Assembly: GCA_045605805.1 (NCBI GenBank)
Contig: JAZUQR010000008.1
Location: 35,932 to 67,931 of the forward strand
Direction: 5' to 3'
Source: Alphaproteobacteria bacterium
GTDB lineage: Bacteria; Pseudomonadota; Alphaproteobacteria; CAAHEQ01; UBA3637
DNA: 32,000 nucleotides
Shown here: in pieces, positions 9,249 to 26,735 of the stretch
Position numbering within the stretch: position 1 is the stretch's first letter
How the letters are laid out: the number at the start of each line of letters is the position of its first letter
Position numbers and translations under genes: made by a program
Notes under the pieces: model-generated
Databases searched by the model: none
Told to the model about the DNA's origin: nothing
Seen by the model: only the letters and a program-made list of their open reading frames with translations

Positions 9249-11483
9249 ATGATTTACTTTTCACATATTACAAACCCTTTTCAGCCGAATAAGGGTCGGA
9301 TAGATCGTGTCCTTGACGAAGGGAAAACGGTCTGGCAACTGGTCGAAGAACAGAAAGTTGACTTGAAACGCCCGACAATTTGTATGATCAACGGTGGTGC
9401 AGTCCTCAGAAAGTTTTGGAACGACCTTGTTCAGCCAGATTCGCTTGTTTGCTTTATCACGCTTCCGGAAGGCGGTGGCGGCGGTAAATCCTCAAATCCA
9501 GTTCAGGTTGTTTTAATGGTCGCGGTTGTTGTTGCTTCCGTTTATACCGGTGGTGCTGTGGCGGCGGCCTATGGTGCTGTTTGGGGTGGTGTTGCGGCGG
9601 CGGCAGTTTCCATTGGCGGAAGCTTTCTTGTCAACACATTCGTTCCACCACCTAAGGCCTCTCTTAACGGGTCCGGCTCGGCCAACTCAATAGCGGCACA
9701 AAGTCCGACTTATTCCTTGCAAGCACAAGGTAATCAGGCCCGGCTTGGCAGTCCGATACCGGTTATTTATGGCCGACACCTGATTTATCCGGATTTTGCC
9801 AGTCAGCCTTATTACGGCTATGCAAACGATGAACAATACACTTATCAAGTGCACTGCATCGGCCAAGGCTACTATGACATCGAGAAAATCCGGATTGAGG
9901 ACACGCCAATCAGCTCGTTTGAAGAGATAACATATCAGATTATCAATCCGGGCGAGAAGAACACGCTCTTTCGTGATGATGTGGTAACTTCGCCGGAGGT
10001 TGCCGGACAAGAGCTTTTGAAAGGAAACACGATCGGGCCGTTTGTCTTAAACCCGACCGAAAGTGAAATTGACCGGGTGGAAATTGATGTTGCTTGTCAG
10101 CGCGGCCTTTATTACGCAAATGACAGCGGCGGCCTGAACACAAAATCGGTTCAATGGCGCGTTGATGCCCGAAAAATTGATGATGAGGATAATCCCTTGG
10201 GTGACTGGTTCACTCTCGGGACCGAAACATTGTCAGCCAATACGGTCAACGGTCTTTACCGGACATATGGTTATTCGGTGGCAAAAGGCAGATACGAAGT
10301 CCGGGCCACACGTTTAGATGATAAAGATACATCTTCACGCGCTGGACATGAACTCCGTTGGGCCTCGGCAAAAGGCTTTATTGTATCAAATCCGAGTTAC
10401 GGCGACGTAACCTTGCTCGCCATTAAGATGAAAGCCACAAATAACCTGTCGCAACGTTCAAGCCGTATGGTTAACTGTATTGTGACAAGGAAGTTGCCGA
10501 CCTGGTCACCGTCTGGTGGCTGGACCGGCAGAGTGCCGACACGCTCTATCGCCTGGGCAATAGCCGACATCTTAAAAGCTAACTATGGTGCAAGACTGAC
10601 TGACAAGTCCATAGATCTTGAAGGTTTATACCGGCTGGATCAGATTTGGGCCGCACGGGGTGATACGTTTAATGCCGTCTTTGATTCCAAATTGACGGTT
10701 TATGATGCCTTGTCGCGAACCTGCAAAGTCGGACGTTCCGTTCCCTACATTCAAGGCGGCATTGTTCGCTTTGTCCGGGATGAGCCAAAATCAATACCGG
10801 TTGCATTGTTCGGGCCAAGAAACATCGTCAAAAACAGCCTGACAATTCAATACATCATGCCCTCTGAAGATACAGCGGACAGCGTTTGTGTTCAGTATTT
10901 TTCGGACCGAACTTGGAAGAACTCAGAGATAACCGGCAGTTTTGAAGGCTCCACCTCAGATAAGACGGCAACGGTTGAGCTTTTCGGTTGTACCGATAAA
11001 AACCAAGCTCTCCGGGAGGCCATCTATATGGCGTTGGCTAACCGATATCGCCGGCGAATTGTGACATTTTCAACCGAATTGGAAGGTCTGATCCCGAGCT
11101 ATGGGGATTTGATTTCCATTACGCATGATATGCCGCATTGGGGTTCAGGTGGTGAAATCCTGTCAAAAAATGACATGACTTTAACGCTATCCGAGCCGGT
11201 TGAGTTTACCGAGGGCCAAACTCACTATTTGGCTTTAAGAACTCGAACCGGGGAACTATCAGGACCGTACCGGGTAAAAGCCGGTTCGCTTCCGACTGAG
11301 GTTATTTTGCTAGATACTCCCGATATTCCTATCGATACCGGGACCGATGCAGAACGAACTCATTTTGCCTTTGGAACTCAAGACAAATGGGGAACATTAG
11401 CTCGTGTGACAGGGATTAAACCACGCTCCGGCAAGGTTGAAATTACCGCCGTCATTGAGGACAACAGAGTTCACGCCAATTAA
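9249..11483 (+). CDS. Host specificity / central tail tip protein (lambda J-like) with an I-like N-terminal module
   Basis: 744 aa. The N-terminal ~70 aa plus a GGGGGK and Gly/Ala/Val-rich hydrophobic stretch resemble lambda gpI. The remainder is the size of a J-type tip protein and sits in the J position. Confidence 0.7.
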   Translation: MIYFSHITNPFQPNKGRIDRVLDEGKTVWQLVEEQKVDLKRPTICMINGGAVLRKFWNDLVQPDSLVCFITLPEGGGGGKSSNPVQVVLMVAVVVASVYTGGAVAAAYGAVWGGVAAAAVSIGGSFLVNTFVPPPKASLNGSGSANSIAAQSPTYSLQAQGNQARLGSPIPVIYGRHLIYPDFASQPYYGYANDEQYTYQVHCIGQGYYDIEKIRIEDTPISSFEEITYQIINPGEKNTLFRDDVVTSPEVAGQELLKGNTIGPFVLNPTESEIDRVEIDVACQRGLYYANDSGGLNTKSVQWRVDARKIDDEDNPLGDWFTLGTETLSANTVNGLYRTYGYSVAKGRYEVRATRLDDKDTSSRAGHELRWASAKGFIVSNPSYGDVTLLAIKMKATNNLSQRSSRMVNCIVTRKLPTWSPSGGWTGRVPTRSIAWAIADILKANYGARLTDKSIDLEGLYRLDQIWAARGDTFNAVFDSKLTVYDALSRTCKVGRSVPYIQGGIVRFVRDEPKSIPVALFGPRNIVKNSLTIQYIMPSEDTADSVCVQYFSDRTWKNSEITGSFEGSTSDKTATVELFGCTDKNQALREAIYMALANRYRRRIVTFSTELEGLIPSYGDLISITHDMPHWGSGGEILSKNDMTLTLSEPVEFTEGQTHYLALRTRTGELSGPYRVKAGSLPTEVILLDTPDIPIDTGTDAERTHFAFGTQDKWGTLARVTGIKPRSGKVEITAVIEDNRVHAN

Positions 11484-11496
11484 GAAAGGACACATC

Positions 11497-11739
11497 ATGG
11501 ATTGGATTCAATTTTTACAGATCATCTGCGTACCGGCCTTTGGCTGGTTTTTTTATAAGCTCGGCGAACAGCGCAAAGAATTAAAAACTCTTGAGCGCGA
11601 CCTCAACGAGTTCAAAGTTGCGGTGGCCAAAGAGTATGCCACTCAGGTTAACATCAATCGCCTGGAGACAAAGATTGATGAATTACATCAGCTTTTATGG
11701 GAGATGCACAATGAACACACCTCGCGGCATAAGAAATAA
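11497..11739 (+). CDS. Small membrane/coiled-coil protein of the lysis cassette (holin-like)
   Basis: The ATG at 11497 follows TTAAGAAAGGAC. It has one N-terminal TM segment (ICVPAFGWFFYKL) followed by a charged helix. The ORF-track start at 11437 lies inside the J-like gene. Confidence 0.5.
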   Translation: MDWIQFLQIICVPAFGWFFYKLGEQRKELKTLERDLNEFKVAVAKEYATQVNINRLETKIDELHQLLWEMHNEHTSRHKK

Positions 11740-12118
11740 TAACCCCGGAAATATCCGGTGGGGATCGGACTGGAAAGGATTAAAAAAGGACGGAAAGCAA
11801 CAGGATCCGTCCTTTTGTGTATTTGAAACGCCTGAATATGGTATCCGGGCGTTGGCCAAATTACTCCGGAACTATCAGCGGCTTTATGGCCTGAACACGC
11901 CTTATCGGATAATCAGCCGGTACGCGCCACCGACCGAAAACGAAACAGTTTCATATATTGACAGCGTTTCGTGGCAACTGAACATCACGCCGGACACGCC
12001 GGTCGACCTTTCGGAAGATGGTGTTTTGATGGTGTTTATAAAAGCAATCATTAGACATGAGAACGGCATACAACCATACTCTAATGAAACTCTATTGAAA
12101 GGAATTCAAATGGCATGA
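11711..12118 (+). CDS. Endolysin-like protein
   Basis: An internal ATG at 11711 gives MNTPRGIRNNNPGNIRW..., an N-terminal motif I recall from small phage cell-wall hydrolase-type proteins. Located in the lysis cassette. Catalytic class unknown. Confidence 0.5.
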   Translation: MNTPRGIRNNNPGNIRWGSDWKGLKKDGKQQDPSFCVFETPEYGIRALAKLLRNYQRLYGLNTPYRIISRYAPPTENETVSYIDSVSWQLNITPDTPVDLSEDGVLMVFIKAIIRHENGIQPYSNETLLKGIQMA

Positions 12119-12523: not shown

Positions 12524-12635
12524 TTTTTGCCTTTTATATGAACCGGTGTATGCCGATTATGAGCATGATACCCCGGAAACGGTCCGTCAAATTGATAGAA
12601 ACAATGTGATTTACGATGATTTATGTACAAATTAA
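12441..12635 (+). CDS. o-spanin-like lipoprotein
   Basis: Signal peptide with a lipobox (LILSALSG-C). 64 aa. Its start lies inside the i-spanin gene in a different frame, the classic Rz/Rz1 overlapping arrangement. Confidence 0.6.
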   Translation: MLKQLRIVGTAWLILSALSGCTTNINGDFCLLYEPVYADYEHDTPETVRQIDRNNVIYDDLCTN

Positions 12636-12732
12636 AAGATTTTGTTTGACTTTTCTTGCAAAAATGGCTCGAATCATAAGCGGAGGTGTCATGAACCTCT
12701 GTAATCTTAATATTAAGAAAGGAAAATTAAAC

Positions 12733-13005
12733 ATGAATAAAACTGAATTTGTTGAAGCAGTTGCTAAAGAAGCTAAAGCCTCTAAAGCCGCCGCAAATGA
12801 ATTGGTAAACGCTGTTGTAGCTGTTGTTACAAAAGCATTGAAAAAAGGTGAATCAGTTCAAATCACTGGTTTCGGTACATTTGAAGTAGCAAAACGCGCC
12901 GCTCGTAAAGGTCGCAATCCTGCTACCGGTAAAGAAATCAAAATCCCGGCATCAAAAGCTCCTAAGTTCAAAGCCGGCGCAGTCTTGAAAAAAGCTGTAA
13001 AATAA
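12733..13005 (+). CDS. hup: HU/IHF-family DNA-binding protein
   Basis: 90 aa, MNKTEFVEAVA...GFGTFEV..R.AR.GRNP.TG..I.I....P.FK.G..LK, which matches the full-length HU signature. The ATG at 12733 follows TTAAGAAAGGAAAA, the same RBS cassette the phage genes use. Confidence 0.9.
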   Translation: MNKTEFVEAVAKEAKASKAAANELVNAVVAVVTKALKKGESVQITGFGTFEVAKRAARKGRNPATGKEIKIPASKAPKFKAGAVLKKAVK

Positions 13006-13056: not shown

Positions 13057-13085
13057 TTGCATTTTAATCTGCCATGGGTTATAAT
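13057..13085 (+). promoter_or_regulatory. Sigma70-type promoter for the DGR operon
   Basis: TTGCAT (13057-62), a 17-nt spacer, then a perfect TATAAT (13080-85). Predicted transcription start near 13092. Confidence 0.5.
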
Positions 13086-13091
13086 GACCGA

Positions 13092-13343
13092 GCTTGGTTA
13101 GTTATGCCCAATCAGGCTAGGATTCGATAAATCCGATTATCAGTATGGGCAGAAGGTATTTCTGTCGGCATCCGCCATGGATACGCCGAAAGATTGTGTT
13201 AGTTCATGGGTGGATGCCTGCCGAATAAGGTATCCACCCCAATAAGGCAGGACTATTTCTCATACTGATAATAGTTTATCGACATCCACCCGCCTCATCA
13301 CAGGTGGGTAAATTGTTGATATGGGGCGTATGAAGGGTGGATC
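13092..13343 (+). promoter_or_regulatory. Highly structured ~250-nt 5' leader (candidate riboswitch or attenuator) with SD-sequestering alternative helices
   Basis: Long-range stem 13136-13147 (attatcagtatg) with 13261-13272 (catactgataat). GGGTGGAT occurs at 13208-15 and at 13335-42, where it overlaps the SD of the first gene. ATCCACCC occurs at 13232-39 and 13284-91. GGCATCCGCC at 13167-76 also pairs with 13208-18. I could not match it to any known riboswitch class. Confidence 0.45.
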
Positions 13344-13784
13344 ATGGGCAAGATATGCTCGTTTTTTGGACACAGTCATTTATATGGACAATCGGACCGT
13401 ATTGCCCAACAATTAAGGCAAGTCATTATCAATTTAATCGGACAAGGTGTTGATACCTTTTACGTTGGCAATCATGGTGAGTTTGATATTTTTGCCAGCC
13501 GGGTAGCCTATGATCTGAAAAGTTTATATCCTAACATCCAAATCATTGTTGTTTTATGTTATCCAAATGAGTTGCAATACTTAAAATGTGCCTTCACGGA
13601 TTTTTTGATGCCTCCGGAAATAGAAGCGGCCCCCAAACGGGCTTGCATTGTAACTCGCAATCATTGGGTTGCTGATAATTCTGACTACATCGTCTGCTTT
13701 ATCAAATACAAAATGGGTGGAGCCTATGCGGCTATCGAATACGCCCAAAAGCACCATAAACAGATTATAGAGGTGAGAGCATGA
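13344..13784 (+). CDS. SLOG-family (DUF1273/YpsA-like) protein, probable DGR accessory gene
   Basis: 146 aa. FFGHS...G(Q)GVDTFYVGNHGEFDIFA...YPNIQIIVVL resembles the Rossmann-like YpsA/DUF1273 pattern. It is the first gene of the operon. Family assignment is from memory. Confidence 0.5.
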   Translation: MGKICSFFGHSHLYGQSDRIAQQLRQVIINLIGQGVDTFYVGNHGEFDIFASRVAYDLKSLYPNIQIIVVLCYPNELQYLKCAFTDFLMPPEIEAAPKRACIVTRNHWVADNSDYIVCFIKYKMGGAYAAIEYAQKHHKQIIEVRA

Positions 13785-13883
13785 ACCAAGCAGGCATACG
13801 TCACATTTGGGCTGAACGGTTGACTTCGCAAGGGAAGACGGATAAAATTGGCCCGGTAAAAACTCATAAAGAATGGTGTAAAA

Positions 13884-14477
13884 ATGCGTAAAGATCAAGT
13901 CAGTCGTAATCAAAGAATTCATATGCCCAGGAAGGTAGAAAACGTTTCGGGGCAATTAATGCTACCTGTGGATGTTGCTTCTGTAAAGCAAGCATTTGCA
14001 ACAGCTAATGACAAACGATTTAAATATGCTGATGCGCTGGATCAAGCAACCAAAGAAGATCCGGAATTGCATCAAATTTCAACAATTCCAAGCGATTCAA
14101 GCGAATTAATTGTTATAACGAAACTTAAAAAACTGGGGGCTTATATTCTAGCCGTGACGGTTAAATCGCCGGCCAAATTTAGACCTGTTTTTATCAATCG
14201 GATGCAAAATTACAGCTTGTCGGCTTTGGAAAATTTATTGAATGCTAATTTTATTCGGATGGATAGCCCCGAACATAAAGCCCAGCGAGAAAAGCATCAA
14301 ACGGATGCACTCATTCAGTTAAAAATGGTGGCATATGTTGCAATGCTGTCGGAAAATGCAAAGTGTATTTTGATGAGGCAGTATAAACAAATATCAATTC
14401 AGGTTGGTGAAATTATTAACCTGATTATGGCATGGAAAAAAAGTGATGATAAACAATGGCAAACAAAAAAGTTTTGA
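13884..14477 (+). CDS. avd: Avd-like accessory variability determinant (four-helix-bundle type) with an N-terminal extension
   Basis: The C-terminal ~120 aa are helical and basic, with the pattern SPAKFR...L..A......H.....A...L.....L.......QY.QI..QVGEI.NLIMAWKKS, like bAvd and 23S-IVS-type four-helix bundles. It ends 38 nt upstream of the TR, the canonical avd position. Alternative starts are at 13923 and 13959. Confidence 0.6.
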   Translation: MRKDQVSRNQRIHMPRKVENVSGQLMLPVDVASVKQAFATANDKRFKYADALDQATKEDPELHQISTIPSDSSELIVITKLKKLGAYILAVTVKSPAKFRPVFINRMQNYSLSALENLLNANFIRMDSPEHKAQREKHQTDALIQLKMVAYVAMLSENAKCILMRQYKQISIQVGEIINLIMAWKKSDDKQWQTKKF

Positions 14478-14515
14478 ATCCGAAAGGGTCAAAAGAGGGA
14501 AAGTTGATAATGCGT

Positions 14516-14635
14516 ATTGTGCCTCTTGGTCCGCGTCTTCAAATGAAAATGAAAACGTGCGTTGCGTCAACTATAAGGGCGATAAGAACTGGAATAACAC
14601 GAATAAACGTAAAATCTCGGCGCGCCCCGATTTGC
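14516..14635 (+). repeat. DGR template repeat (TR)
   Basis: 120 nt matching 16142-16261. It contains 37 adenines, including 8 AAY codons in the register of the target frame. It ends in the GC-rich element TCTCGGCGCGCCCC (14615-28). Confidence 0.95.
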
Positions 14636-14890
14636 TTTTAAGGAGAACAACAAAATGTGGTCGGCAAAGACACAGATCTCTGAAACAAGCCAGATATGTG
14701 GATTTTAGAAAAAATCCGCCCGTGCTTAAAGCAAAGGAAACTTTCTCTTTTCTAACCGCTGTCAGCTTAATGCTCAGTGCGGTGGAAGAAGTAAAAATGC
14801 AAAGTTTGCGTTTTATGGGGTATCACATATATTGACACGTCTTGTTTTAATATATTATCGGGTACCCCTTTTTTACAACAAAAGAGAACG

Positions 14891-15940
14891 ATGAAGATAG
14901 AAGAGATATTTACATTTGAAAACTTGGTTGCGGCCCACAAAGCATGTCGGCTGAGTAAGCAACATAAACGAGGAACAATCATGTTTGAAATTGAATTGGG
15001 GCGTAATGTCACCAATCTGGTCAAACAATTGACGGCTAGAACATATCGTTTAAGTCCTTACAGATCCTTTACCATTTATGATCCGAAGAAAAGATTAATT
15101 GAAGCGTTACCCTACAAAGACAGAGTGGTTTTAATGTGCTTTTGTCAGCATTCGGTAGCTCCCCGGCTAGAGAGACACCTGATTTATGACAATGCCGCTT
15201 CACGCAAAGAAAAAGGAACGCATTTTGCGGTAGAGAGATTGCATTCATTTATGCGAAAGCTGTACATCAAAAACAAAACAAATCGGATTTATTTTTTGAA
15301 ATGCGATATCAGGAAATATTTTCAAAGCATCAATCATGAGATTTTATTGGAACTGTTGGCCAAGACCGGTTTTTCGGCTGATGAGATGTGGTTTTTAAGG
15401 ATGATCATTGAATCACACGGTTCCATCGGGTTGCCTTTGGGTAATCAGACCAGCCAATGGTTTGCCTTGCTTTATTTGAACGGAATGGACAGGCTGATTA
15501 AAGAACGTCTGCGTATGTCCTGTTATGTGCGCTATATGGATGATTTTGTTATCCTAAGCGAAGATAAAGCCAAATTACAGCTGTGTAGAAAGCAAATTGA
15601 TGAATATGTCAAAGGATTAAAGCTGTCCTTAAATCAAAAGACACAAATCGGGCTGTTATCGGATGGTATTGATTTTTTGGGATTTAACCACAAATTATCG
15701 GCCACAGGTAAGATTATCAAATCTTTGCGTGGATCGGCCAAAAGCCGCCAAAGAAAATACCTGAAAACCATCCGTCATTACTATTTGAATGATGTCCTGG
15801 ATGATGAGTACCTAGACGTCCGTTTAGCCTCGTTTCGCGGGCATTTAAAGGGGACTAAGAACTGGATCCATATCAGCAACCGCTTGGCTTCCTTAAAACA
15901 CGAGAAACGCCGTACAAAAAAAATTGTTGCAGAACAATAA
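14891..15940 (+). CDS. DGR-type reverse transcriptase
   Basis: 349 aa. Has RT motifs including LPLGNQTSQ (the DGR-characteristic NQ/SQ motif) and the catalytic YMDD (VRYMDDFVIL). There is no maturase or endonuclease extension. The TR lies 255 nt upstream. Confidence 0.9.
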   Translation: MKIEEIFTFENLVAAHKACRLSKQHKRGTIMFEIELGRNVTNLVKQLTARTYRLSPYRSFTIYDPKKRLIEALPYKDRVVLMCFCQHSVAPRLERHLIYDNAASRKEKGTHFAVERLHSFMRKLYIKNKTNRIYFLKCDIRKYFQSINHEILLELLAKTGFSADEMWFLRMIIESHGSIGLPLGNQTSQWFALLYLNGMDRLIKERLRMSCYVRYMDDFVILSEDKAKLQLCRKQIDEYVKGLKLSLNQKTQIGLLSDGIDFLGFNHKLSATGKIIKSLRGSAKSRQRKYLKTIRHYYLNDVLDDEYLDVRLASFRGHLKGTKNWIHISNRLASLKHEKRRTKKIVAEQ

Positions 15941-15984
15941 ATTGTATGATATACTGGGAGTATAAGCTAAATTAGGAGGCTCAT

Positions 15985-17934
15985 ATGGACTTTACGTTTT
16001 TGAAGGAAGATCAGATATGGGGCGATGGTGCCCTAGATGTAATGAAGCGTTATGGCACGAAGGTTGCGCCAACGGATCTGACAGTCATATTGGGTGGTTA
16101 TATGACTGGTGGAGGTGATCGTACTTCTGAAGATGATCTAACTTGTGCCTCTTGGTCCGCGTCTTCAGATGGACATGGAGGCGTGCGTTGCGTCCGCTGT
16201 GAGGGCGATGAGCACTGGGGTGGCACGCATGGACGTGTGATCTCGGCGCGCCCCGCTTTGCCTCCATCGGAGGCATCTAAAATCAGCCCGAGCGAAGCGA
16301 GAGCTATCGCTGGAATCCGCGTAGCGGAATATGGGGAATACCCGCAAACGGTCGCCGATGAACGCACCAGCGAGAAATTAGAAAGATTACATGATTCAAG
16401 ATCTCTCCGTCCGACCGGAAAAAATTACACATTTGATTCAGTTGGTTTAACCGATTATGACACGTCTTTTAAGGCCACATCCTATCAGGAATATGAAATG
16501 GATGGCAAAAGGTATATCCGCGTTCCTGGACGGCCTGCTGACGACGATAGCAAACTATCTACTGGGGAACAGGTAGAGTCCGGAAAACCCTACTGGGTTG
16601 AGGTCCAACCGATAGAATGGCTGATGGATAGAAGCGGCACAATGGTCGCCAAAAAATGCTTATTCGCCGGTATTCAATTTGATACAAAGAGCTCATATGA
16701 CGGTGACTTCTCTAAAACGTCCATGAAACACTATTTGGACACTTATTTTGCCAAAGAAATGGAGCCAACCGGACGTGTGGCCGCAAGAACGGTATCAAGA
16801 GACTATGAAGAAGAGCCGGAAAGAAAAGAACCCGTTAAAAAGAAAGAACCGACAGCCAGACAGAAGAAATACGGGATCGAGGTATCTGATGAGCCTATGC
16901 CCGTCAAGGACCAAATAAACTTCTATATTCAAAACGGAATGAGCTTCATGCTCCATGGCCCGTCCGGTGTCGGTAAATCACAACGTGTGAAAGAAATTGA
17001 TCCGGATTTGACCTCAATTACGCTGTGTAACGGAATTTTGCCTGAAGATGTTATCGGTAAAACAATCTATCCAAACGGCGTGGGAGCCGATGGGGCCTCC
17101 GGTGGTGTTTGGGTGCCGCCTAAGTGGTACACGGATTTGTGCAGAAAATGCGAAACAGAACCGGACAAACAGCACGTCTTATTTATCGATGAAGTGACCA
17201 ATGCGCGTGAAACAACACAAAGTTTGATCTATCACGTAGCGTTGGAAAAATCAATTGCCCAGGGCGTTGGCAAACTGCCTAATAATGCTGTGGTCGTATT
17301 GGCCGGTAACAGCAAGGAAGAATCAGGAGCCGCTTATAACATGCCGGCCCCGTTGTTCAGACGTTTAAGCCATATTTACTTGGACTTGAATATTCAGGAT
17401 TGGTTGGAATGGGGCTCGGAACACAGCAAGAGCCATCCGGAAGATCCGGATCGCTTAAACATCCATCCATTAGTCGCCAGTTTTGTGGCAACCTACGGAC
17501 GGCAAGTGTTCTATTCCGAGTATGATGAAGAAAACCCCGGCAAGTTTGCACTTGACCCACGAAAATGGGAAAAAGTATCAGATAAAATCTACGCTAATAA
17601 GGGTATGATGCGCCGTGAGATTTTGGAAGCTGATATCGGGCCTGAGTTGGCGGCCAGTTTGTTGTCTTATGCTAAAAATCCGCCGCTATCCCTGGAAGAA
17701 GTGATTGAGGGCGAATATACCCGCGAGGATATTCCTACGGGACAGGATGCCCGTTTGGCGTTGGCGTTGAGTTTGCGTCATGCAACACCGAAACAAGTCG
17801 GGAAAGTACGTCAATTTGTTGAAACACAGTTAGGCGCAGAAAATCGTGCGATTTTTGACTCTGTTTGGGTGGGCAAGGATGATACACGCGCCATGCAGAT
17901 TGCCACTTTACATAACTTAAAGGGAGGAAGATAA
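15985..17934 (+). CDS. DGR target protein: N-terminal variable ligand-binding domain fused to a MoxR/AAA_5-like ATPase
   Basis: Strong RBS (AGGAGG). The VR occupies codons 53-92. A charged linker spans about aa 272-296. Walker A is GPSGVGKS (16957-16980), Walker B is VLFIDEV, sensor-1 is LAGN, followed by PLFRRL. The order and spacing of these motifs resemble MoxR/AAA_5 ATPases. Confidence 0.8.
   Translation: MDFTFLKEDQIWGDGALDVMKRYGTKVAPTDLTVILGGYMTGGGDRTSEDDLTCASWSASSDGHGGVRCVRCEGDEHWGGTHGRVISARPALPPSEASKISPSEARAIAGIRVAEYGEYPQTVADERTSEKLERLHDSRSLRPTGKNYTFDSVGLTDYDTSFKATSYQEYEMDGKRYIRVPGRPADDDSKLSTGEQVESGKPYWVEVQPIEWLMDRSGTMVAKKCLFAGIQFDTKSSYDGDFSKTSMKHYLDTYFAKEMEPTGRVAARTVSRDYEEEPERKEPVKKKEPTARQKKYGIEVSDEPMPVKDQINFYIQNGMSFMLHGPSGVGKSQRVKEIDPDLTSITLCNGILPEDVIGKTIYPNGVGADGASGGVWVPPKWYTDLCRKCETEPDKQHVLFIDEVTNARETTQSLIYHVALEKSIAQGVGKLPNNAVVVLAGNSKEESGAAYNMPAPLFRRLSHIYLDLNIQDWLEWGSEHSKSHPEDPDRLNIHPLVASFVATYGRQVFYSEYDEENPGKFALDPRKWEKVSDKIYANKGMMRREILEADIGPELAASLLSYAKNPPLSLEEVIEGEYTREDIPTGQDARLALALSLRHATPKQVGKVRQFVETQLGAENRAIFDSVWVGKDDTRAMQIATLHNLKGGR
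16142..16261 (+). repeat. DGR variable repeat (VR)
   Basis: Differs from the TR at 24 positions, all TR adenines (17 A->G, 6 A->C, 1 A->T). The other 83 positions are identical. It lies in frame inside the 649-aa target gene. Confidence 0.95.
16260..16274 (+). promoter_or_regulatory. Hairpin immediately 3' of the VR (candidate homing/target-recognition element)
   Basis: GCCTCC-ATC-GGAGGC, a perfect 6-bp stem with a 3-nt loop. It starts where TR/VR homology ends and is absent from the TR side. Confidence 0.6.
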
Positions 17935-17935
17935 A

Positions 17936-18400
17936 ATGTCATTAAAAGAAATACTCGAAAAAAGTCGGAAAAAACGCAAGAATGGCTTAGTCATTGGGCC
18001 TGATATAGGATGGCTTGGTCCGAAACCCGCCCGAACAAAAGCCGAAAAGATTAATCAAATCAAAACGGAATTTATTGATGATAGAGCTTTGTTGATTGTC
18101 GGAGCTAAAGCATCCGATTTTGCAGAATATCCGAAGATAGAGGCTGATATCTCAGTTCAACGTTTGATTCAATATATGGATACGTTTGAAAAAACGGAAG
18201 ATCATAAAGGTTTCTTGGTCATTGATGGGTTAGACAATATACCTGAATCTGAACAGGAAAAGTTTGTCCCCTTGTTAAAAGATCGGCAGATTTTATCCAG
18301 TAAGCTGCCAAATGAAGTTCAAATTTTGGTTCCTGTGAAAAAAATTGAAGACATTTCAAAAAGGATAAAATCTCTGATATTTCCTCTGAAGGTGGTATAA
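17936..18400 (+). CDS. Hypothetical protein, operon partner of the ATPase and VWA genes
   Basis: 154 aa. It starts 2 nt after the ATPase stop and ends in a TAATG overlap with the VWA gene. Apart from a Walker-B-like FLVIDGLD, I found no motif. Confidence 0.5.
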   Translation: MSLKEILEKSRKKRKNGLVIGPDIGWLGPKPARTKAEKINQIKTEFIDDRALLIVGAKASDFAEYPKIEADISVQRLIQYMDTFEKTEDHKGFLVIDGLDNIPESEQEKFVPLLKDRQILSSKLPNEVQILVPVKKIEDISKRIKSLIFPLKVV

Positions 18401-20247
18401 TGATCAAAGATGTTTTAAAACAACAAGAAGAAATTCAATATATCAAGGAACAGGTTTTAGCCAAGTTTCCCTTACTTGGTGTGACGATGATGCCTTTGTC
18501 GGTTGTTCCTGATGATAGAATTGGGACAGCGGCCACGGATGGACATAAAATTATCTATTCTCCAAAGTTTTTTAACACCTTATCGGACGAACAAAAACAA
18601 TTTGTCTTTGCGCATGAAGTGATGCATGTCGCTTTTAACCATATTTTGCGCAGTAAGGGTCGTAATCAAAGATTGTGGAATATCGCAACCGATTCTGTTA
18701 TCAACCAAATCTTGAAAAATGAAAAATTGCCATTAGCGGAAGGTGGCGTTGATATTGCAGAAGCTGTCAATCATTCGGCCGAGGAAATGTACGAAAAACT
18801 TTTGAAAAAGAAAGAACAGCGCGATCAGGAAAAACAGCAAAATCAAGAGCAAGATCAACAGCAACAACAATCACAATCCGGTGGGACGGACCAGCCTCAG
18901 GATCAGGATGCACAAAATCAGCCTGAACAGGAACAACCTCAGGATCAAGACGGACAAAATCAATCCGGACAAGACCAGCCTCAGGATCAAGACGGGCAAA
19001 AGGGACAAGAACAATCCGATCAACAATCAGACGGTTCAGAAAATCAAGATGAACAAAACAAAAATTCATCAGAAGGCTCGGAAGGATCCGAACAACAGAA
19101 AGATCAATCTCAAGATGGTGATTCAAACTCTGAACAAAACAGTTCTTCCGGTCAGGGAGACGAAAATCAATCTGATTCAAATTCCGAACAATCAAGCGAC
19201 AATCAACAAGGATCCTCTAAACCTCAAAAAGGTGGTCAACGTTCGCAATCCGGTTCTTCCTCTCAATCAGAAGACACCGACTGGGATGACAGCAATATCG
19301 ATTGGGACAATGAAGATGAACAAGTAGGCCACGATACACATGATATTTGGAAAGAAGCAGTTGAGCAAGCAGAACGTGAAGAACAACGAAAACAGGAAGC
19401 ATCCAAAAAGAAAAGTTTATGGGATAAACTAAAAGAGAACATGGGGCAAAAAGAAGTTAAAGAGGATCAGCAAGGCGAACCTCAAGAAAAAGAAGCTCCT
19501 GTACCGCAAGATGAAAACATGGATGCGTATGAAAAAGGCTTCTTGGCAGAAAATCAAGAAAAACGTCATGAGATGGCCGAACAGGTGCGCGAACAATTAA
19601 ACAGGATAAAAGGAAGCCTCCGTCAATCAAATGATCATACCACAGTCGGGGATGTTGGGGAAACTCAAACGCCGGTGGTTGATTGGAAAAAAATGCTTAA
19701 AAAATCTTTTGATGAAGAGCGTGATCGTTGGTCCTATCGTCGTTCCGGTTCTGAAAACGACTATATGGCTCGGGTAGAAGAATTGGAAGATGAAGGCCGT
19801 CCGGATACTGAGGTTATGTTGGATGTCAGCGGTTCTGTAAATATCCGCTTGTTACGTGAATTTTTAAGACAACTTAAACCGTTACTTAAATCCTCTAAAT
19901 TAAAGGTCGGTTGCTTTGATGAGTTTGTTTATGATTTTAAAGAAATAAAGACAAAAGAAGATATTGATCATTTTCAAATTACGGCAACATCTCAATGGAC
20001 TGAAAACTGGGATGCGGCTGTCCGGGCATTTTCTAAGAAAAAAGAAGTGAATAAAATTATTTTTACAGACGGATATCCATGCCCAGGAACAATGCCTAAA
20101 GAAGATTTAAAGGGTAAGAATGTTATTTGGATAGTTTATGGAAATAAAGATTTTAATCCATGCTGTGGTAAAGTCATCCAGGTTTCTGAACGACAACTTC
20201 AGTCGTATATTCAGACGGCCGCTCCACTTTCTAGAGGTGGAAGATAA
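18400..20247 (+). CDS. Putative HExxH metallopeptidase / VWA-domain protein (DUF2201-like) with a long disordered linker
   Basis: N-terminal HEVMHVAFNH motif (18613-). About 170 aa of Q/D/E/S/G-rich low complexity. The C-terminal domain has a MIDAS-like DVSGS (19822-19836). AAA_5/MoxR ATPases are commonly partnered with VWA proteins. Confidence 0.7.
   Translation: MIKDVLKQQEEIQYIKEQVLAKFPLLGVTMMPLSVVPDDRIGTAATDGHKIIYSPKFFNTLSDEQKQFVFAHEVMHVAFNHILRSKGRNQRLWNIATDSVINQILKNEKLPLAEGGVDIAEAVNHSAEEMYEKLLKKKEQRDQEKQQNQEQDQQQQQSQSGGTDQPQDQDAQNQPEQEQPQDQDGQNQSGQDQPQDQDGQKGQEQSDQQSDGSENQDEQNKNSSEGSEGSEQQKDQSQDGDSNSEQNSSSGQGDENQSDSNSEQSSDNQQGSSKPQKGGQRSQSGSSSQSEDTDWDDSNIDWDNEDEQVGHDTHDIWKEAVEQAEREEQRKQEASKKKSLWDKLKENMGQKEVKEDQQGEPQEKEAPVPQDENMDAYEKGFLAENQEKRHEMAEQVREQLNRIKGSLRQSNDHTTVGDVGETQTPVVDWKKMLKKSFDEERDRWSYRRSGSENDYMARVEELEDEGRPDTEVMLDVSGSVNIRLLREFLRQLKPLLKSSKLKVGCFDEFVYDFKEIKTKEDIDHFQITATSQWTENWDAAVRAFSKKKEVNKIIFTDGYPCPGTMPKEDLKGKNVIWIVYGNKDFNPCCGKVIQVSERQLQSYIQTAAPLSRGGR
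18817..19330 (+). repeat. Low-complexity Gln/Asp/Glu/Ser-rich coding tract with degenerate QPQDQDGQNQ repeats
   Basis: Repeated cagcctcaggatca(a/g)ga(c/t)g(g/c)acaaaa units. The tract creates spurious ORFs at 18881-19327 (+) and 18767-19195 (-). Confidence 0.8.
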
Positions 20248-20289: not shown

Positions 20290-22872
20290 TTAATATAAAT
20301 TAGCCTCAAAAATTTGATAAAGGTCAAATTCTATACCGTCAACGCCTCTGATGAGGTCTATTTCATCTTCGGCGGCGACATCAATTCGGGCCTGATCTAA
20401 AAACAAGCCTTCTTCTTTTCGTTTAAGCTCTTTTTCAGCGACATTCAGCTGTTTTTGAATTCTTAATTCCGTGAGCCGGTCTGAAGCGGAGGATATTGTC
20501 TCACGAATTTTTTTAACCTCTTGCCTTGCTTCTGAAATGTTTTGCTCTAGGACAGATTTTTGGCGGCTGGCTTTTATTTTAATTAAATCAACATCCGTAT
20601 CAAACTTTTTGGTATAATCATTTACATAACGTTCCTTAAGGTCGCGCTGGATGCGTGTATCTAACAAATCTCGCGATGAACCGCCAGTCGTTTTTAGCCA
20701 ATACGGATTCCTCTTTTCTTCAGCTATAAATTCACTAACCGGTTGATTGATAATTTTTTGGCATTCCTCATCAGTCATGAGCCGTCCATCAGGTGTCGTA
20801 CCAACCAAAATGTCATACTCTGATAAATACTGCCGGCGGCGATTACGTAAGACGATGTTATAGAACTTTATATTGCATTTTTCTGTTGGCTCAACGGTTT
20901 TAATGTCCGCTTTGTCAGAGCATGATATTTCTTGTAAAATACCACGAACAAGCACGGATGTTAAAGTGATGCGCCCTGCGACCGGCTTAAAATCTTTACT
21001 CATTCCATAAGTCCTGCGACCGGTGTATGGCACATTTCTTGTGCCGGTGTAATAGTAAAACATGTGCGGCAATTCTTCATCGTCCGGTAAAGTCAGCGTT
21101 TGATTGAAGTCATCGATCACATATTCCGGATGCTTTGTCGCAAAATAAAACTTCACAACTTCCCATAAATCTTTATTCAAGAACTCCGCTTGTTCCTCTA
21201 TGTATTTCGGCGAAACGGACACTTTCTCGGCAATATCTTTGGTAAAAGTGGTAAAGAGAGAACTTTCAGCCGCTGAAACAATGCGCTCATTCGGTTCGCG
21301 GTTTACTTCCAAGTTTGTTTCCATATCTGCGCGTATATCACTAAGCGTGCGGCGTTTTTGCAAAACATCTTCCAGTTTAACATCAAAATTACCGACAATA
21401 TCGTCCGACATACCAAAAATGCCTTCAAATTGCAGGGTACGCTTGTTTATCAGCTCCAAAATACGGACATCCGAGATATTTTCTTTGCTTAAAAGATTGA
21501 TAACTAAAACATCGGATTGCTGGCCTTGTCGGTGGCAACGACAGATACGCTGTTCCATTTCCACGGCGTTATAAAGTAAATCATAGTTAACCACAACTGG
21601 ACAATATTCAATATCCAAGCCTTTGGCCATAGCATCACTACAAATTAAAATTTGCAAATCTTTTTCTGCCCGAAAACGTGGCAGAGCATCATTTTCTGTA
21701 TGCTTGATGACATTATATCCGGCGGTTTTAAGCAAATTTGCCAAAACTGGCACGGTGGCAAGATTATCCACGAACACAATCGCTTTTTGTGTTTCTTTAC
21801 GCAATTTTAAGTGTGCAAATGTCGTTTTAATAGCTTTTAGAAATTCTTCCATTTTGGCGGTTTGCGTAATTTTTGCCGCCATATCGCGCATTGATTCCAA
21901 AATAACACGTTCATCGCCTTGTGTTCGCTCAATAGGTGCTTCCAACATTGTGGCAAATGCTTGTGGTGATGAGGCCAAAATGTGGTAAAACATCAAAGTC
22001 AGTTGATAATTATCCATTTGCGGATAAGCCTGCTTTTCAGCTAAATTTAAGTATTTTTCGGTTAAATCATAAATTTTCTTTTCATCATCTTTTGGTACGT
22101 AGTTCAAAACAATCGGTAAGCGACGTGTAAAGTTTACATACTGGCTCGCTTGGCTTTTAAGGGTACGAAAAGCGAATTGTGATACCCAATTTGATAGTTC
22201 TGGATAGTTTTCGGGCTTTCTGAAATACCGGCGATAAAAACTGTCAGGATCCGGCAGAACGCTTTCATCAATAAAATGTATCAATCCGTAAATATCCATG
22301 ATACTCATTGTGATCGGCGTTGGCGTTAAAAGCAGTTTGAAAGCATCGCCGACAGCACCCTTAATGGTTGCAACTGATTTATTGTCCGGCTTAAAAAGAA
22401 AATCAGCCTCATCAAACACGGCCAAATCCCAACGAATGCTTTTGACTTTTTCTGCCTCACGGATAACATCATCGTATGTGACAAGGCAAATACCTTTACT
22501 ATCGGCAGTATATTCGGCCCATTTGATAACCGGCAAGGTGAACTCTTCATCAAGTTTTTGTTGCCATTGTGCCATAAGGTTTTGGGGTAAAACAACCAAT
22601 ATATGTTCTTTTCCCTCGTACCAACGTTGAACTACTACAAGCAAAGCCTCATAAGTTTTACCGAGTGAGCCTTCATCACATAAAATGCAACCTTTAATCA
22701 ACCTAGATCGCAGGGCAAAACGGGCCGCGGCTATTTGATAAGGTAATACTTTAATTTTTGAAGAAGCATAAACCGCCAGTAAATTATCGTCATCGCGAAA
22801 ACTGGCCAATCGTCTGGCTTCCACCATAGCGGCAAATTCGGATACAAAACGATACGGCTTAGTCTCTTCCAT
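20290..22872 (-). CDS. SNF2-family helicase-like ATPase with a C-terminal coiled-coil extension
   Basis: Motif I is LCDEGSLGKT and motif II is VFDEADFL. The helicase-C block is ...DAMAKGLDIEYCPVVVNYDLLYNAVEMEQRICRCHRQGQ. The start lies 3 nt after the res stop. Confidence 0.8.
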   Translation of the reverse strand: MEETKPYRFVSEFAAMVEARRLASFRDDDNLLAVYASSKIKVLPYQIAAARFALRSRLIKGCILCDEGSLGKTYEALLVVVQRWYEGKEHILVVLPQNLMAQWQQKLDEEFTLPVIKWAEYTADSKGICLVTYDDVIREAEKVKSIRWDLAVFDEADFLFKPDNKSVATIKGAVGDAFKLLLTPTPITMSIMDIYGLIHFIDESVLPDPDSFYRRYFRKPENYPELSNWVSQFAFRTLKSQASQYVNFTRRLPIVLNYVPKDDEKKIYDLTEKYLNLAEKQAYPQMDNYQLTLMFYHILASSPQAFATMLEAPIERTQGDERVILESMRDMAAKITQTAKMEEFLKAIKTTFAHLKLRKETQKAIVFVDNLATVPVLANLLKTAGYNVIKHTENDALPRFRAEKDLQILICSDAMAKGLDIEYCPVVVNYDLLYNAVEMEQRICRCHRQGQQSDVLVINLLSKENISDVRILELINKRTLQFEGIFGMSDDIVGNFDVKLEDVLQKRRTLSDIRADMETNLEVNREPNERIVSAAESSLFTTFTKDIAEKVSVSPKYIEEQAEFLNKDLWEVVKFYFATKHPEYVIDDFNQTLTLPDDEELPHMFYYYTGTRNVPYTGRRTYGMSKDFKPVAGRITLTSVLVRGILQEISCSDKADIKTVEPTEKCNIKFYNIVLRNRRRQYLSEYDILVGTTPDGRLMTDEECQKIINQPVSEFIAEEKRNPYWLKTTGGSSRDLLDTRIQRDLKERYVNDYTKKFDTDVDLIKIKASRQKSVLEQNISEARQEVKKIRETISSASDRLTELRIQKQLNVAEKELKRKEEGLFLDQARIDVAAEDEIDLIRGVDGIEFDLYQIFEANLY

Positions 22873-22875
22873 AAT

Positions 22876-25800: not shown

Positions 25801-26034
25801 TTGCGGCAGAGAATGAGCCTTTTGGATTGCATGAAGATTGTTGTTTATTGTCTCTTCATCCAACAGCAACTTGTTACCGAACCCAAATTCATTTTGCAGG
25901 AAAGAAGCCTGCGCGGAGTTATCGGCGATTGAAAAAGTCATGTTGGCTTTTTCTTGGCCCTTGAATAACTCAACCGCCGCATTCGTGGCATCAGTTTGAA
26001 ATTCTTGATTCTTAAACTTTAGTTTCATGCTCAT
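22876..26034 (-). CDS. res: Type III restriction enzyme, Res subunit
   Basis: 1052 aa. METGTGKT (Walker A), IIDEPQ (DEAH-like), helicase-C motifs, and a C-terminal PD-(D/E)xK nuclease signature (YNPDW...VLETKG). Confidence 0.85.
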   Translation of the reverse strand: MSMKLKFKNQEFQTDATNAAVELFKGQEKANMTFSIADNSAQASFLQNEFGFGNKLLLDEETINNNLHAIQKAHSLPQTNIDGIKAVPLSIEMETGTGKTFVYTKTILELNHRYGFTKFIIVVPSVAIREGVNKSFQVTEEYFKNQYDGVPYRYFIYNSAKLSDVRAFATSSNIEIMIINIDAFKKAENIINQEQDKLNGETAMRYIQDTNPVVIIDEPQSVDNTPKAKEAIAMLNPLCVLRYSATHREKQNLVYRLTPVDAYQLGLVKQICVISNSVINDSNKPYIALKNVSNANGFSAKLEIDVEDDNAHITRKVITVKPDDDLFIKSGHRKIYEGYVVSGIDCTSGLEGVEFANSEYVALGKAIGSVDEKVLKRAQIYQTIKTHLDKELRYFDMGIKVLSLFFIDEVKKYRTEDGGKGIYAKMFEECYNELINKPRYAELKTKFDTDVNKAHNGYFSQDKKGKYKDTKGDTQADDDTYNTIMKDKEWLLSFECPLRFIFSHSALKEGWDNPNVFQVCTLIEQKSLFTCRQKIGRGLRLCVNQDGERIEDKNINVLHVIANESFAEFADKLQKEIEDETGVKFGVFELDMLVGYSYDEEVEVERRVSESEATAIVEDLQKYGLIDDGGYIKPEVKPEEIKIENIPMPEPVKTHVQDMIKTSKPVSVAALANTTYKETVVEKKTFSYEEAAAIMDELKDKKVIDSKNKIKDTMKAQLAAGTLNLSERWSKAAQRAILQSMNKADNKLNIRDASKDVTVKLNKRALLSPEFMELWNKIKQKTTYRVQFDLDKLIADSIKDIRKMPEIASARLLSQTASVDIQKSGVTAQAGAMFTQNLEKSYDVLPDILRLISTKTLLKRSTVNKIIQESSRAGDFLKNPQDFYEKVLEIIQRNRHALAIDGIKYIKLAGEEYAVQEIFSSEELIANLDRNAVAVKNSVYDYVIYDSSTVEKPFAVALDEDPDVKMFFKIPSRFKIDTPIGTYNPDWAVYLEKNGEQKLYFVLETKGTDSFYGLRPEEQQKIHCGAQHFKALDNVIYSEQPVRNWQEFKKTV

Positions 26035-26726
26035 TTACCTATTTTATAAATTACATATTTAATTTCAGGATTCGAAAACTGCTCCTTAAAGAAAGATTCC
26101 ATTTTCTTGTCATTATTCACAACTTCTTTAGGCAATTGATTAAAATTTAATATTGTTTTATCCATCATGCCTACATCATTTATCAGAATACGATGACGCT
26201 TGTCTTCGTTCTTATTCCAGTAGAGGATCGCATACCTTATGGAGCCGGAAATAACCTCATTATCAAACGTAACGCTGTGCGTTGTAATGGTTTCCAACTT
26301 TTTCTTTTTTTTGATTTTACCAGTAAACGGGATAAAAATCGTCTTTTCGGGAGTTTGAACTCTAAAATATATGTCTTTATGCATAGGGATTTCAGGCTCA
26401 TAGGAGTATCTTTTCCCCATAATGTTATATGCATGAAAAGGTTCCAACAAAAATGGCTCATCAAAAGTTTTTAGTGTCATTAGGTATTTATTGTTGAATA
26501 CGACAGAGATGGCCGTAATCGTTTTCGGAGAGAGCGTTTTATTGAATATCGTGCAATGTAAACCACTCCCTTCAAAAGAATTATGATTTTCTCCGAAAGA
26601 TGTGATTTTAAGATTTTTTGAAAAGTGGTAAAGCCAAAAGCCATAAGCAGTTAAAACAAATATCCCCAAATTACCAAGGATGGATGCTACTTTCTCAACA
26701 GTTTCCAAATTCAAAAAATCACACAT
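26031..26726 (-). CDS. Hypothetical membrane-anchored protein inserted between mod and res
   Basis: 231 aa with an N-terminal TM segment (LGNLGIFVLTAYGFWLY). It has its own RBS (GAGGTGGA) and an ATGA overlap with the res start. It looks A+T-rich by eye. No recognisable motif. Confidence 0.55.
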   Translation of the reverse strand: MCDFLNLETVEKVASILGNLGIFVLTAYGFWLYHFSKNLKITSFGENHNSFEGSGLHCTIFNKTLSPKTITAISVVFNNKYLMTLKTFDEPFLLEPFHAYNIMGKRYSYEPEIPMHKDIYFRVQTPEKTIFIPFTGKIKKKKKLETITTHSVTFDNEVISGSIRYAILYWNKNEDKRHRILINDVGMMDKTILNFNQLPKEVVNNDKKMESFFKEQFSNPEIKYVIYKIGK

Positions 26727-26735
26727 CGTCCACCT

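Follow-up and report, generated by a model that had tools for sequence, protein, structure and literature searches.

We analysed a stretch of 32,000 nucleotides from an Alphaproteobacteria bacterium (contig JAZUQR010000008.1, positions 35,932 to 67,931; hereafter the window, with its first letter as position 1) and observed that it carries a complete diversity-generating retroelement (DGR) whose target is an ATPase. The variable sequence lies in the N-terminal domain of a 649-amino-acid (aa) protein that continues into a MoxR-like AAA+ ATPase, and the gene of this protein is followed by those of a conserved small protein and of a metallopeptidase joined to a von Willebrand factor A (VWA) domain. 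We propose that the locus encodes a MoxR/VWA-peptidase machine whose recognition domain is programmable by the DGR and whose most likely use is inter-element conflict, and we give this statement as a whole a probability of roughly 0.5. The anatomy itself, that is the DGR, the ATPase with its variable domain and the conserved three-gene operon, is hardly in doubt. The conflict mechanism, taken alone, we hold at slightly under even odds; a conflict role is plausible. That a programmable recognition module gates an ATPase/VWA/peptidase effector, and that it has an anti-phage role, had been put forward in an earlier reading of the same DNA (hereafter the original prediction), and we likewise infer both. 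The features on which the argument rests are the following.

13884-14477, plus strand: Avd, the DGR accessory protein (phrog_3206, 6.7e-11)
14517-14635, plus strand: template repeat (TR), 119 nt
14891-15940, plus strand: DGR reverse transcriptase (RT), 349 aa (RVT_1, 9.6e-20; phrog_1423, 2.5e-93)
15985-17934, plus strand: DGR target, 649 aa, made of N-terminal module, linker and MoxR-like AAA+ ATPase
15985-16770, plus strand: N-terminal 262-aa module of the target
16143-16261, plus strand: variable repeat (VR), 119 nt
16244-16275, plus strand: candidate homing signals at the 3' end of the VR
16882-17931, plus strand: MoxR-like AAA+ ATPase domain of the target, aa ~300-649
17936-18400, plus strand: conserved small protein, 154 aa
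18400-20247, plus strand: metallopeptidase-VWA partner, 615 aa

The retroelement, its target and the two partner genes

The complete DGR (Avd, TR and RT) is contained in positions 13884-20247 of the window. Reverse transcriptases of the DGR type are RVT_1 proteins with an (I/L/V)GxxxSQ motif and a YxDD motif, and in the translation of the RT gene we read LGNQTSQ and YMDD. The matches of Avd to curated profiles are below cut-off (Pfam bAvd 1.1e-5, 26.3 bits for a cut-off of 40; NCBIfam DivGenRetAVD 5.4e-5). The TR contains 36 adenines in its 119 nt, and AAY codons are abundant when it is read in the frame of the target. When TR and VR were compared, we observed 23 mismatches, all 23 of them at TR adenines (binomial P = 1e-12), and no drift at all at other bases. 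The VR corresponds to aa 54-92 of the target, near its N-terminus. The original prediction had described a DGR with its VR in the N-terminal part of a 649-aa protein, and every part was indeed found where it had been placed. An open reading frame (ORF) of 130 aa that covers the TR (14443-14835) is the TR read in the frame of the target (CASWSASSNENENVRCVNYKGDKNW...) and not an independent gene. A tail fibre or another second target was considered and rejected: a search of the 32-kb window with the TR pattern, adenines masked, retrieved nothing besides the TR itself and a single VR.

At the 3' end of the VR we observed a GC-rich element, CGGCGCGCCCCG, at 16244-16255, and a hairpin, TGCCTCC-ATC-GGAGGCA, at 16259-16275, which has a stem of 7 bp and a loop of 3 nt and which the TR does not possess. 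The similarity between the repeats stops after position 14635 in the TR and 16261 in the VR. By analogy with the DGR of Bordetella phage BPP-1, the model for the function of the initiation of mutagenic homing (IMH) sequence and of the hairpin, the two elements are candidate IMH/homing signals. The N-terminal position of the VR in the target is unusual, since a survey of thousands of DGRs places VRs in C-terminal C-lectin regions (Roux 2021) and since 5'-proximal VRs have been termed rare (Baykov et al. 2023).

An AlphaFold2 model of the target, built with 70 homologues, predicts an N-terminal module (aa 1-262) with a predicted local distance difference test score (pLDDT) of ~95. It is followed by a linker (264-286) that is disordered and by a C-terminal half of alpha/beta and helical structure, where pLDDT is only 60-88. 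The motifs that had been read in this half, Walker A (GPSGVGKS, aa 325-332), Walker B (FIDE, aa 400-403), sensor-1 (N442) and arginines (R459/R460), are well conserved among the 70 homologues: G328, G330, K331, D402, E403 and N442 are invariant, and R459/R460 nearly so. The C-terminal half matches phrog_1297 'ATPase' (1.8e-37), and its top Foldseek matches in the PDB are CbbQ2 (6l1q, 5.8e-7) and NorQ (9qh4/9qh6, ~1e-6), with a probability of 1.0. With a family profile searched against PDB sequences we found 2r44 at 1.5e-4, which we take to be a MoxR-type ATPase (its PDB title is 'Uncharacterized protein'), and CbbQ 5c3c at 0.046. In Pfam, the matches are sub-threshold (AAA_3, 17.3 bits for a cut-off of 27; AAA_5, 16.6 bits for a cut-off of 22), and a few homologues carry precomputed PF07728/PF07726 matches. 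The MoxR/AAA_5 assignment made earlier thus holds by phrog_1297, Foldseek, the conserved motifs and the genomic context, not by a curated Pfam profile, and we conclude that the ATPase half is an intact MoxR-like AAA+ domain. As also claimed before, the target has no transmembrane (TM) or signal-like segment in a hydropathy scan (maximum KD19 0.86); the scan found none in the small protein and the VWA partner either, which suggests that all three proteins are cytoplasmic.

The N-terminal module bears the VR in residues 1-95 and is beta-rich from ~100 to 262; modelled in isolation with AlphaFold2, it reaches a pLDDT of 95.6 and a predicted template-modelling score (pTM) of 0.93. The window module has no Pfam match even at E<=10, no sequence-profile match in the PDB and, with the pLDDT 95.6 model as query, no significant Foldseek match in the PDB or BFVD. 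When the module profile was searched against 1.84 billion representative proteins, it found 2,440 clusters, 812 of them at E<1e-30. Standalone proteins of 270-450 aa make up most of this family; some members contain the module in tandem, and in others it is fused to repeats (ankyrin, DUF4116, MORN, pentapeptide or LRR) or to AAA domains. When 50 longer members were scanned, Pfam DUF6273 matched four. Two of these exceed the gathering score of 23.5 bits (P0140, 31.4 bits; P0127, 26.3 bits), and the matches overlie the VR-bearing part. The stretch of P0140 that aligns to positions 114-171 of the 172 in the DUF6273 profile (residues 57-117) coincides with the VR region of the module; P0127 is a tandem protein, and its match runs across the boundary from one module into the following one.

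In gut phages, DUF6273 has been described as a C-lectin-like domain targeted by DGRs, with the VR in some cases close to the 5' end (Baykov et al. 2023). Through P0140, the VR is located at the C-terminal end of DUF6273, as in the published mapping, so that this position is common to the published DUF6273 targets and to the window-type module. Judged from these alignments, the module appears remotely related to DUF6273. Compared with the Pfam DUF6273 model, it has the VR part first, followed by an extra beta-rich insert of ~100 residues and by a 'YPQ...IEW...YLDxYF' part; this suggests a DUF6273 that has been rearranged or permuted and has gained a beta-rich insertion, the aligned single stretches being individually weak. 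A new, non-lectin scaffold for the VR was considered and rejected in view of the DUF6273 matches over the VR part in distant module members and of the published C-lectin-like status of that domain.

The target gene and the two genes that follow form an operonic trio. Coupling of the three genes had been predicted, with a TAATG overlap already at the first junction; that overlap was found at the second one, between the small gene and the VWA gene (18398-18402), and the junction of the ATPase gene with the small gene reads TAA-A-ATG, with a gap of 1 nt. The small protein (154 aa in the window, 116-165 aa in relatives) is encoded between the ATPase and VWA genes in every trio examined. It has no P-loop and carries a Walker-B-like LVIDGLD (hhhhDGLD). 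A recognisable domain was looked for in it and rejected: searches of Pfam, PHROGs, NCBIfam, PADLOC and PDB profiles gave no significant family, the signals being sub-threshold (NPHP3_N 0.003, 18.2 bits for a cut-off of 24.8; Avs1b 5.5e-4), as was the hhalign comparison with the segment of the target from Walker B to sensor 1 (E 0.029, probability 1.7%). The small protein is possibly an adaptor derived from a degenerate NTPase core, that is a P-loop-less NTPase remnant. It also brings to mind the inactive STAND protein that forms the third component of MoxR-vWA ternary systems in the literature.

For the third gene, the prediction of a metallopeptidase and a VWA domain was borne out. The protein matches, above the Pfam cut-offs, DUF2201_N (2.6e-29, 103.1 bits, cut-off 23.2) and DUF2201 (5.3e-7, 30.2 bits, cut-off 26.4), as well as phrog_1314 (1e-49). 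The zincin domain DUF2201_N extends over aa 17-183, with HEVMH...H81, and the VWA-like domain DUF2201 over aa 472-595, with a metal-ion-dependent adhesion site (MIDAS) made of DVSGS, T534 and D557. Six homologues with 47-84% identity all retain H72, E73, H76, H81, D475, S477, S479, T534 and D557. A low-complexity linker rich in Q, E, D and S (aa ~135-400; 18800-19600), which contains 42-nt tandem repeats at 18888-19013, joins the peptidase to the VWA domain; among homologues its length goes from almost nil in L032 (L numbers designate the genomic contexts of relatives, P numbers proteins) to about 270 residues. Our literature searches found no functional papers on DUF2201.

Variation and distribution of the family

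VR variation was measured on 39 proteins from different samples, each sharing 79-96% identity with the window protein. The mean entropy per column was 0.16 bits for the ATPase half and 1.62 bits for the VR, where the 20 codons with a TR adenine averaged 2.71 bits against 0.47 bits for the 19 codons without one. Dozens of proteins that are 88-96% identical differ mainly in the VR. This hypervariability at the population level supports DGR activity. A DGR-less variant, P0025, was found with an identical sequence on >40 contigs and thus has a frozen VR.

Relatives of the 649-aa protein form 611 clusters at E<1e-5, many of them full-length and with 46-96% identity. Matches in genomes come from uncultured Alphaproteobacteria, as metagenome-assembled genomes (MAGs) from human, ruminant and other guts, plus one Clostridiales MAG. 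The trio is a large family of gut and rumen Alphaproteobacteria MAGs, present on prophages and on chromosomes. In all alphaproteobacterial contexts examined, the order is kept (ATPase fusion, small gene, DUF2201 gene), the DUF2201 VWA-like gene being two genes 3' of the ATPase in every trio. In cultured phages, tblastn with the full target matched only the AAA+ core at <30% identity, and with the N-terminal module it matched nothing; two scans of IMG/VR returned only two distant AAA+ fragments.

The co-occurrence of RT, MoxR and VWA genes, which the original prediction had suggested surveying, was looked at in these contexts: at least four divergent lineages have the trio together with a DGR of its own, and at least seven have the trio but no adjacent DGR. 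A DGR adjoins the trio in the window-type prophages L001, L002, L004, L005, L023, L024 and L025, and also in L008, L032 and L042. The target of L008 is 58% identical to that of the window, with Avd and RT next to it. Those of L032 and L042 are 52% identical to it, and both loci have their own Avd-TR-RT and their own VR, with 13 of 14 and 23 of 27 mismatches, respectively, at TR adenines; the RT of L042 is split. Since such divergent loci hold TR/VR pairs of their own, the association of DGR and trio is old or recurrent. No RT was found within 8-10 kb of the trio in L003, L007/L009/L018/L019, L020, L033-35, L036, L041 and L043. Defence genes are neighbours of several trios: Gabija lies ~5 kb away in L032 (GajA 2e-157, GajB 1e-114), a type III restriction-modification (R-M) system with a PDC-S13 gene adjoins the trio in L018, and PDC-S01 and a type I HsdR are near it in L034.

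Standalone paralogues of the module were observed in chromosomal housekeeping neighbourhoods in L012, L013, L015, L016, L030 and L031; for other standalone module proteins, the contexts fell on short contigs. The located copies are the following.

L012, 4311-5327: standalone module paralogue
L013, 7992-8963: standalone module paralogue
L016, 7980-9041: standalone module paralogue
L030, 3829-5019 and 5032-6159: pair of standalone module paralogues
L031, 9998-11011 and 11170-12219: pair of standalone module paralogues

VR-like segments of several relatives differ from the window TR mainly at TR adenines (20 of 22 mismatches in L013, 23 of 23 in L027, 20 of 24 in L003 and 16 of 21 in L012, with P values for the adenine bias from 1e-12 to 2e-5). 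L003 is an ATPase fusion without a nearby RT, and yet its VR-like segment matches the window TR. Because the VRs of paralogues differ from the window TR mostly at adenines, one TR family probably serves several paralogous targets, which would be diversified in trans.

Some variants of the arrangement were also noticed. The standalone paralogues are sometimes tandem, have basic C-terminal tails and are found near yajC-secD, rplQ and similar genes. In L046 (6269-11018), the gene of an unfused AAA_5 ATPase (579 aa) overlaps the start of the gene of a 1005-aa module plus ankyrin protein; the link between module and AAA_5 therefore recurs in a split form. The 293-aa product of L010 (6756-7637) has the N-terminal module and the linker joined to a fragment of the VWA linker, as a deletion or rearranged derivative. 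L026 and L027 are short contigs with a permuted order, which probably results from assembly breaks at the hypervariable VR. In the Clostridiales MAG, L014 (7845-10595, 916 aa) and L017 (3129-5519, 796 aa) encode proteins of 37-39% identity with longer N-termini; neither the small gene nor a DUF2201 partner adjoins them, and their neighbours are housekeeping genes.

Related systems and a proposed mechanism

The original prediction knew of no described coupling of a DGR to MoxR, VWA and peptidase components. This part has to be withdrawn, since DGR-associated MoxR/vWA ternary systems, 'VMAP' and iSTAND, have been published (Kaur 2020, PMC7159879; Dore 2024, PMC10907252), and 80% of the cyanobacterial and gammaproteobacterial VMAP systems are DGR-associated (Kaur 2020, PMC7159879). 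Like the window locus, these systems are intracellular and comprise a MoxR-type AAA+ ATPase, a vWA protein and a third conserved protein, often include a peptidase, and have a lectin-type domain, thought to sense the invader, that the DGR hypermutates. They differ from it in that their variable FGS/C-lectin domain is C-terminal on the vWA protein, whereas here the VWA-like domain is C-terminal in its own protein with no VR there, and the VR is N-terminal on the ATPase. Their MoxR protein has its own WxhapG/PsWRxa extension or none, in contrast to the variable module found here on the ATPase. Their third component, a VMAP or iSTAND protein, is large and bears trypsin, caspase, TIR or EAD modules, whereas ours has 116-165 aa; the window vWA protein carries an N-terminal zincin (DUF2201_N), unlike theirs. 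Finally, they are concentrated in multicellular cyanobacteria, actinobacteria and Chromatiales, and ours is found in gut Alphaproteobacteria MAGs and a temperate phage.

The second related system is the pair of a MoxR AAA+ protein and a metallopeptidase-vWA protein of jumbo phages (group 2.2), for which a role in virion assembly was proposed (Iyer et al. 2021, Viruses). The two families are the same (phrog_1297, 1.8e-37; phrog_1314, 1e-49), and there too the metallopeptidase is N-terminal on the vWA protein. However, the jumbo-phage ATPases have ~370-400 aa, lack the variable module and are 25-30% identical over the AAA+ core; these phages have no DGR and no conserved small gene between the two, the pair of PA5oct being separated by four unrelated genes. 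Classical pairs (NorQ-NorD, CbbQ-CbbO, RavA-ViaA, CoxD-CoxE) resemble the window pair by the ATPase fold, which matches CbbQ2/NorQ, and by a MIDAS-bearing VWA partner. They differ from it by fixed metabolic clients and by having no DGR, no peptidase on the VWA partner and no lectin-like N-domain.

As for the variable domain, the DUF6273 targets (tentaclins, Mtd-like small targets, Faecalibacterium prophages, Toutatisvirus) share with the window module a DGR-diversified C-lectin-like domain in gut phages. In tentaclins, an N-terminal DUF6273 is followed by Ig-like/Fn3 domains and acts as a virion-exposed receptor-binding protein (Baykov et al. 2023), whereas here an intracellular AAA+ ATPase follows, and the window target has no Ig/Fn3 match. 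The DGR-diversified STAND NTPases (Dore et al. 2024, PMC10907252) are likewise intracellular NTPases with a diversified ligand-sensing domain, but they are of the NACHT/nSTAND type with a C-terminal C-lectin sensor and usually an effector in the same polypeptide, whereas here we have a MoxR/helix-2-insert AAA+ protein. The novelty claimed earlier is thereby reduced: DGR-MoxR/vWA coupling and N-terminal VRs in DUF6273 are published, the variable scaffold being DUF6273-like and therefore of a known kind of DGR target, and what appears new is the combined architecture with the variable domain on the ATPase. An arrangement of DUF6273-like domain, MoxR-like ATPase, small protein and zincin-vWA was not found described in the searchable literature.

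We propose the following mechanism. The ATPase would assemble into a hexameric ring like other MoxR proteins, and, by the usual logic of AAA+ N-domains, its six N-domains would form a crown for substrate recognition. The VWA domain of the partner would dock on this ring, as NorD on NorQ and CbbO on CbbQ, and bring close the metallopeptidase, which a long flexible linker would tether to it; work on NorQD and CbbQO reportedly found the VWA domain docked on the MoxR ring. The variable surface would capture a ligand, and the most probable ligands are proteins encoded by competing phages or mobile elements; the captured ligand would then be remodelled by ATP hydrolysis and cleaved, or its capture would switch the peptidase on. 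The small protein could be an adaptor or a regulator. By continually rewriting about 20 codons of the binding surface, the DGR would create an anticipatory repertoire of specificities across the lysogen population, and the same TR family would probably rewrite the standalone module paralogues in trans. A more specific version, a recognition-and-proteolysis machine in which a lectin-like crown hands invader proteins to the VWA-metallopeptidase and in which the phage DGR rewrites chromosomal paralogues in trans, is a tentative idea that we rate as somewhat unlikely; if it were true, lysogens would hold an antibody-like repertoire, and acquisition of the prophage would switch on diversification of host genes.

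The reading that we favour is inter-element conflict, with the prophage encoding protection of its lysogen. It is suggested by the presence of a DGR, by the cargo position beside an R-M system and a DrmD-like helicase, by the defence genes (Gabija, R-M and PDC) found near other trios, and by the MoxR/vWA ternary systems, which set a precedent for coupling to a DGR. Several observations weigh against it. No classical toxic effector is present, the peptidase being the sole candidate. For VWA docking on the ATPase and for the function of the small protein, the proposal draws on analogy, and the steps of ligand capture and conflict are inferred. Foldseek gives the modelled window module no lectin-fold match (Mtd, TvpA or other C-lectin), and the window protein itself is connected to DUF6273 only by way of distant family members. 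In PADLOC-DB v2, no model matches the ATPase or the VWA protein, only the RT matching generic RT models, and a known defence system was rejected on the empty result for these two proteins. The trios of L020, L036 and L041 lie amid housekeeping genes (plsX, fabH, rpmF, greA, trxB, tpiA and pyrG among them) without defence neighbours, and only about half of the examined contexts are defence islands. Lytic phages carry distant relatives of the ATPase and of the peptidase-VWA protein in early/replication regions, and for phage homologues the role proposed is that of a virion-assembly chaperone (Iyer et al. 2021).

Trios in housekeeping contexts, homologues in lytic phages and the missing toxic effector leave some weight to two other readings, phage offence and a chaperone. 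In the former, the DGR would retarget the N-domain onto fast-evolving host proteins, for example those of defence, which the machine would unfold or cleave; it would thus be a programmable device for counter-defence or host takeover. Phage DGRs normally serve the phage, the cassette and the trio are phage-borne in the window and in L001, L002, L004, L005, L023 and L024, and the distant versions of lytic phages stand near early/replication genes. The trio is however frequent on chromosomes without phage genes (L018, L020, L036, L041), that of the window belongs to cargo of the lysogenic-conversion type (R-M, DrmD-like) after the lysis genes and not to an early operon, and in L032 the DGR and the trio are part of a chromosomal defence island, so we regard offence as quite unlikely. 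A chaperone or assembly factor outside any conflict, whose variable N-domain would fit a variable client such as a tail fibre or a surface protein, seems to us improbable. It would agree with the virion assembly that Iyer et al. (2021) proposed for the homologous phage pair, with the MoxR-vWA of Acidianus two-tailed virus that is cited as a parallel, with the classical MoxR-VWA pairs, which are maturation chaperones, and with the housekeeping neighbours of some trios. But a chaperone whose client-binding surface undergoes massive targeted hypervariation would be without precedent, the trio often occurs without any phage, and in the window there is no second VR or variable client, the trio being outside the structural module, after the lysis genes.

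The VR differences might also be historical, left by a decaying or silent DGR on a fusion protein whose specificity is now fixed. Many relatives indeed have no adjoining DGR, P0025 is identical on its many contigs and L042 has a split RT; yet in the window the parts are intact and the changes strictly adenine-specific, without other drift, and close relatives by the dozen vary mainly in the VR, which makes this reading highly improbable. Membership in the published VMAP or iSTAND conflict systems is the least probable of all. Three components with a MoxR-like ATPase and a vWA protein, the DGR association and the weak STAND-like matches of the small protein (NPHP3_N, Avs1b) would speak for it. 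These matches are nevertheless below every threshold, and the VR on the ATPase, the zincin on the vWA protein, the short third protein without effector and the unicellular gut bacteria and phage as hosts all point away from it.

DGR targets are overwhelmingly surface or virion proteins with a C-terminal variable lectin domain (Roux 2021), and the intracellular targets described so far are STAND NTPases and the vWA proteins of ternary systems in multicellular bacteria. The locus extends this theme to a variable domain placed directly on an AAA+ motor, to a unicellular gut/rumen alphaproteobacterial host and to a temperate phage, with a partner of a metallopeptidase-vWA family that is also present in many lytic phages. 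If the proposed mechanism is true, this would be a compact system of three genes in which about 20 codons determine the specificity, relevant to anticipatory immunity in bacteria and engineerable as a protein-targeting device. Through this locus, the function of two large uncharacterised families becomes approachable as well, namely that of the 262-aa module (>2,400 representative clusters) and DUF2201.

Prophage setting

By the annotation of the window, the DGR and the trio are located at the right end of a siphovirus-type prophage. The original prediction had put them at a prophage end by an R-M operon, and a type III R-M system and a DrmD-like helicase do adjoin this accessory end. The cargo between the lysis genes and a tRNA gene consists of two blocks, one on the plus strand (from HU to the 615-aa gene) and one on the minus strand (helicase and R-M). 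The surrounding features are the following.

1308-3953, upstream of the region: tape-measure gene (phrog_1716, 2.6e-123)
Upstream of the region: minor tail gene
9249-11483, upstream of the region: J-like central tail fibre (phrog_469, 5e-159)
11591-12118, upstream of the region: endolysin
12616-13005, plus strand: HU-type DNA-binding protein (Pfam Bac_DNA_binding, 4.5e-32)
13344-13784, plus strand: SLOG/YpsA-like small protein, directly 5' of Avd (Pfam YpsA, 6e-6, 26.8 bits for a cut-off of 27.7)
20290-28601, minus strand: DrmD-like SNF2 helicase and type III R-M in one operon (PADLOC DrmD, 1.3e-76)
22876-26034, minus strand: Res of the type III R-M (REase_III, 1e-296)
26031-26726, minus strand: ORF of 231 aa between Res and Mod
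26736-28601, minus strand: Mod of the type III R-M (MTase_III, 1.6e-193)
29324-29400, minus strand: tRNA-Pro (GGG)

The HU gene is co-linear with the DGR cassette in L001, L002, L004, L005 and L023, and the protein is a possible accessory factor of the DGR. In the same five loci, the SLOG/YpsA-like gene is 94.5-95.9% identical by tblastn, that is, conserved with the cassette at ~95%. Neither gene occurs in L008 or L032, which are more distant loci with DGR and trio, and the two may be lineage-specific DGR accessory genes. The tRNA-Pro gene is likely the attachment site of the prophage, bounding the cargo region; Rfam and promoter/terminator scans found nothing beyond it. In the related type III R-M system of L018, a Bro-N/PDC-S13 gene takes the position of the 231-aa ORF. 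In L005, a divergent version replaces the helicase/Res block, and the DGR and the trio are unchanged there.

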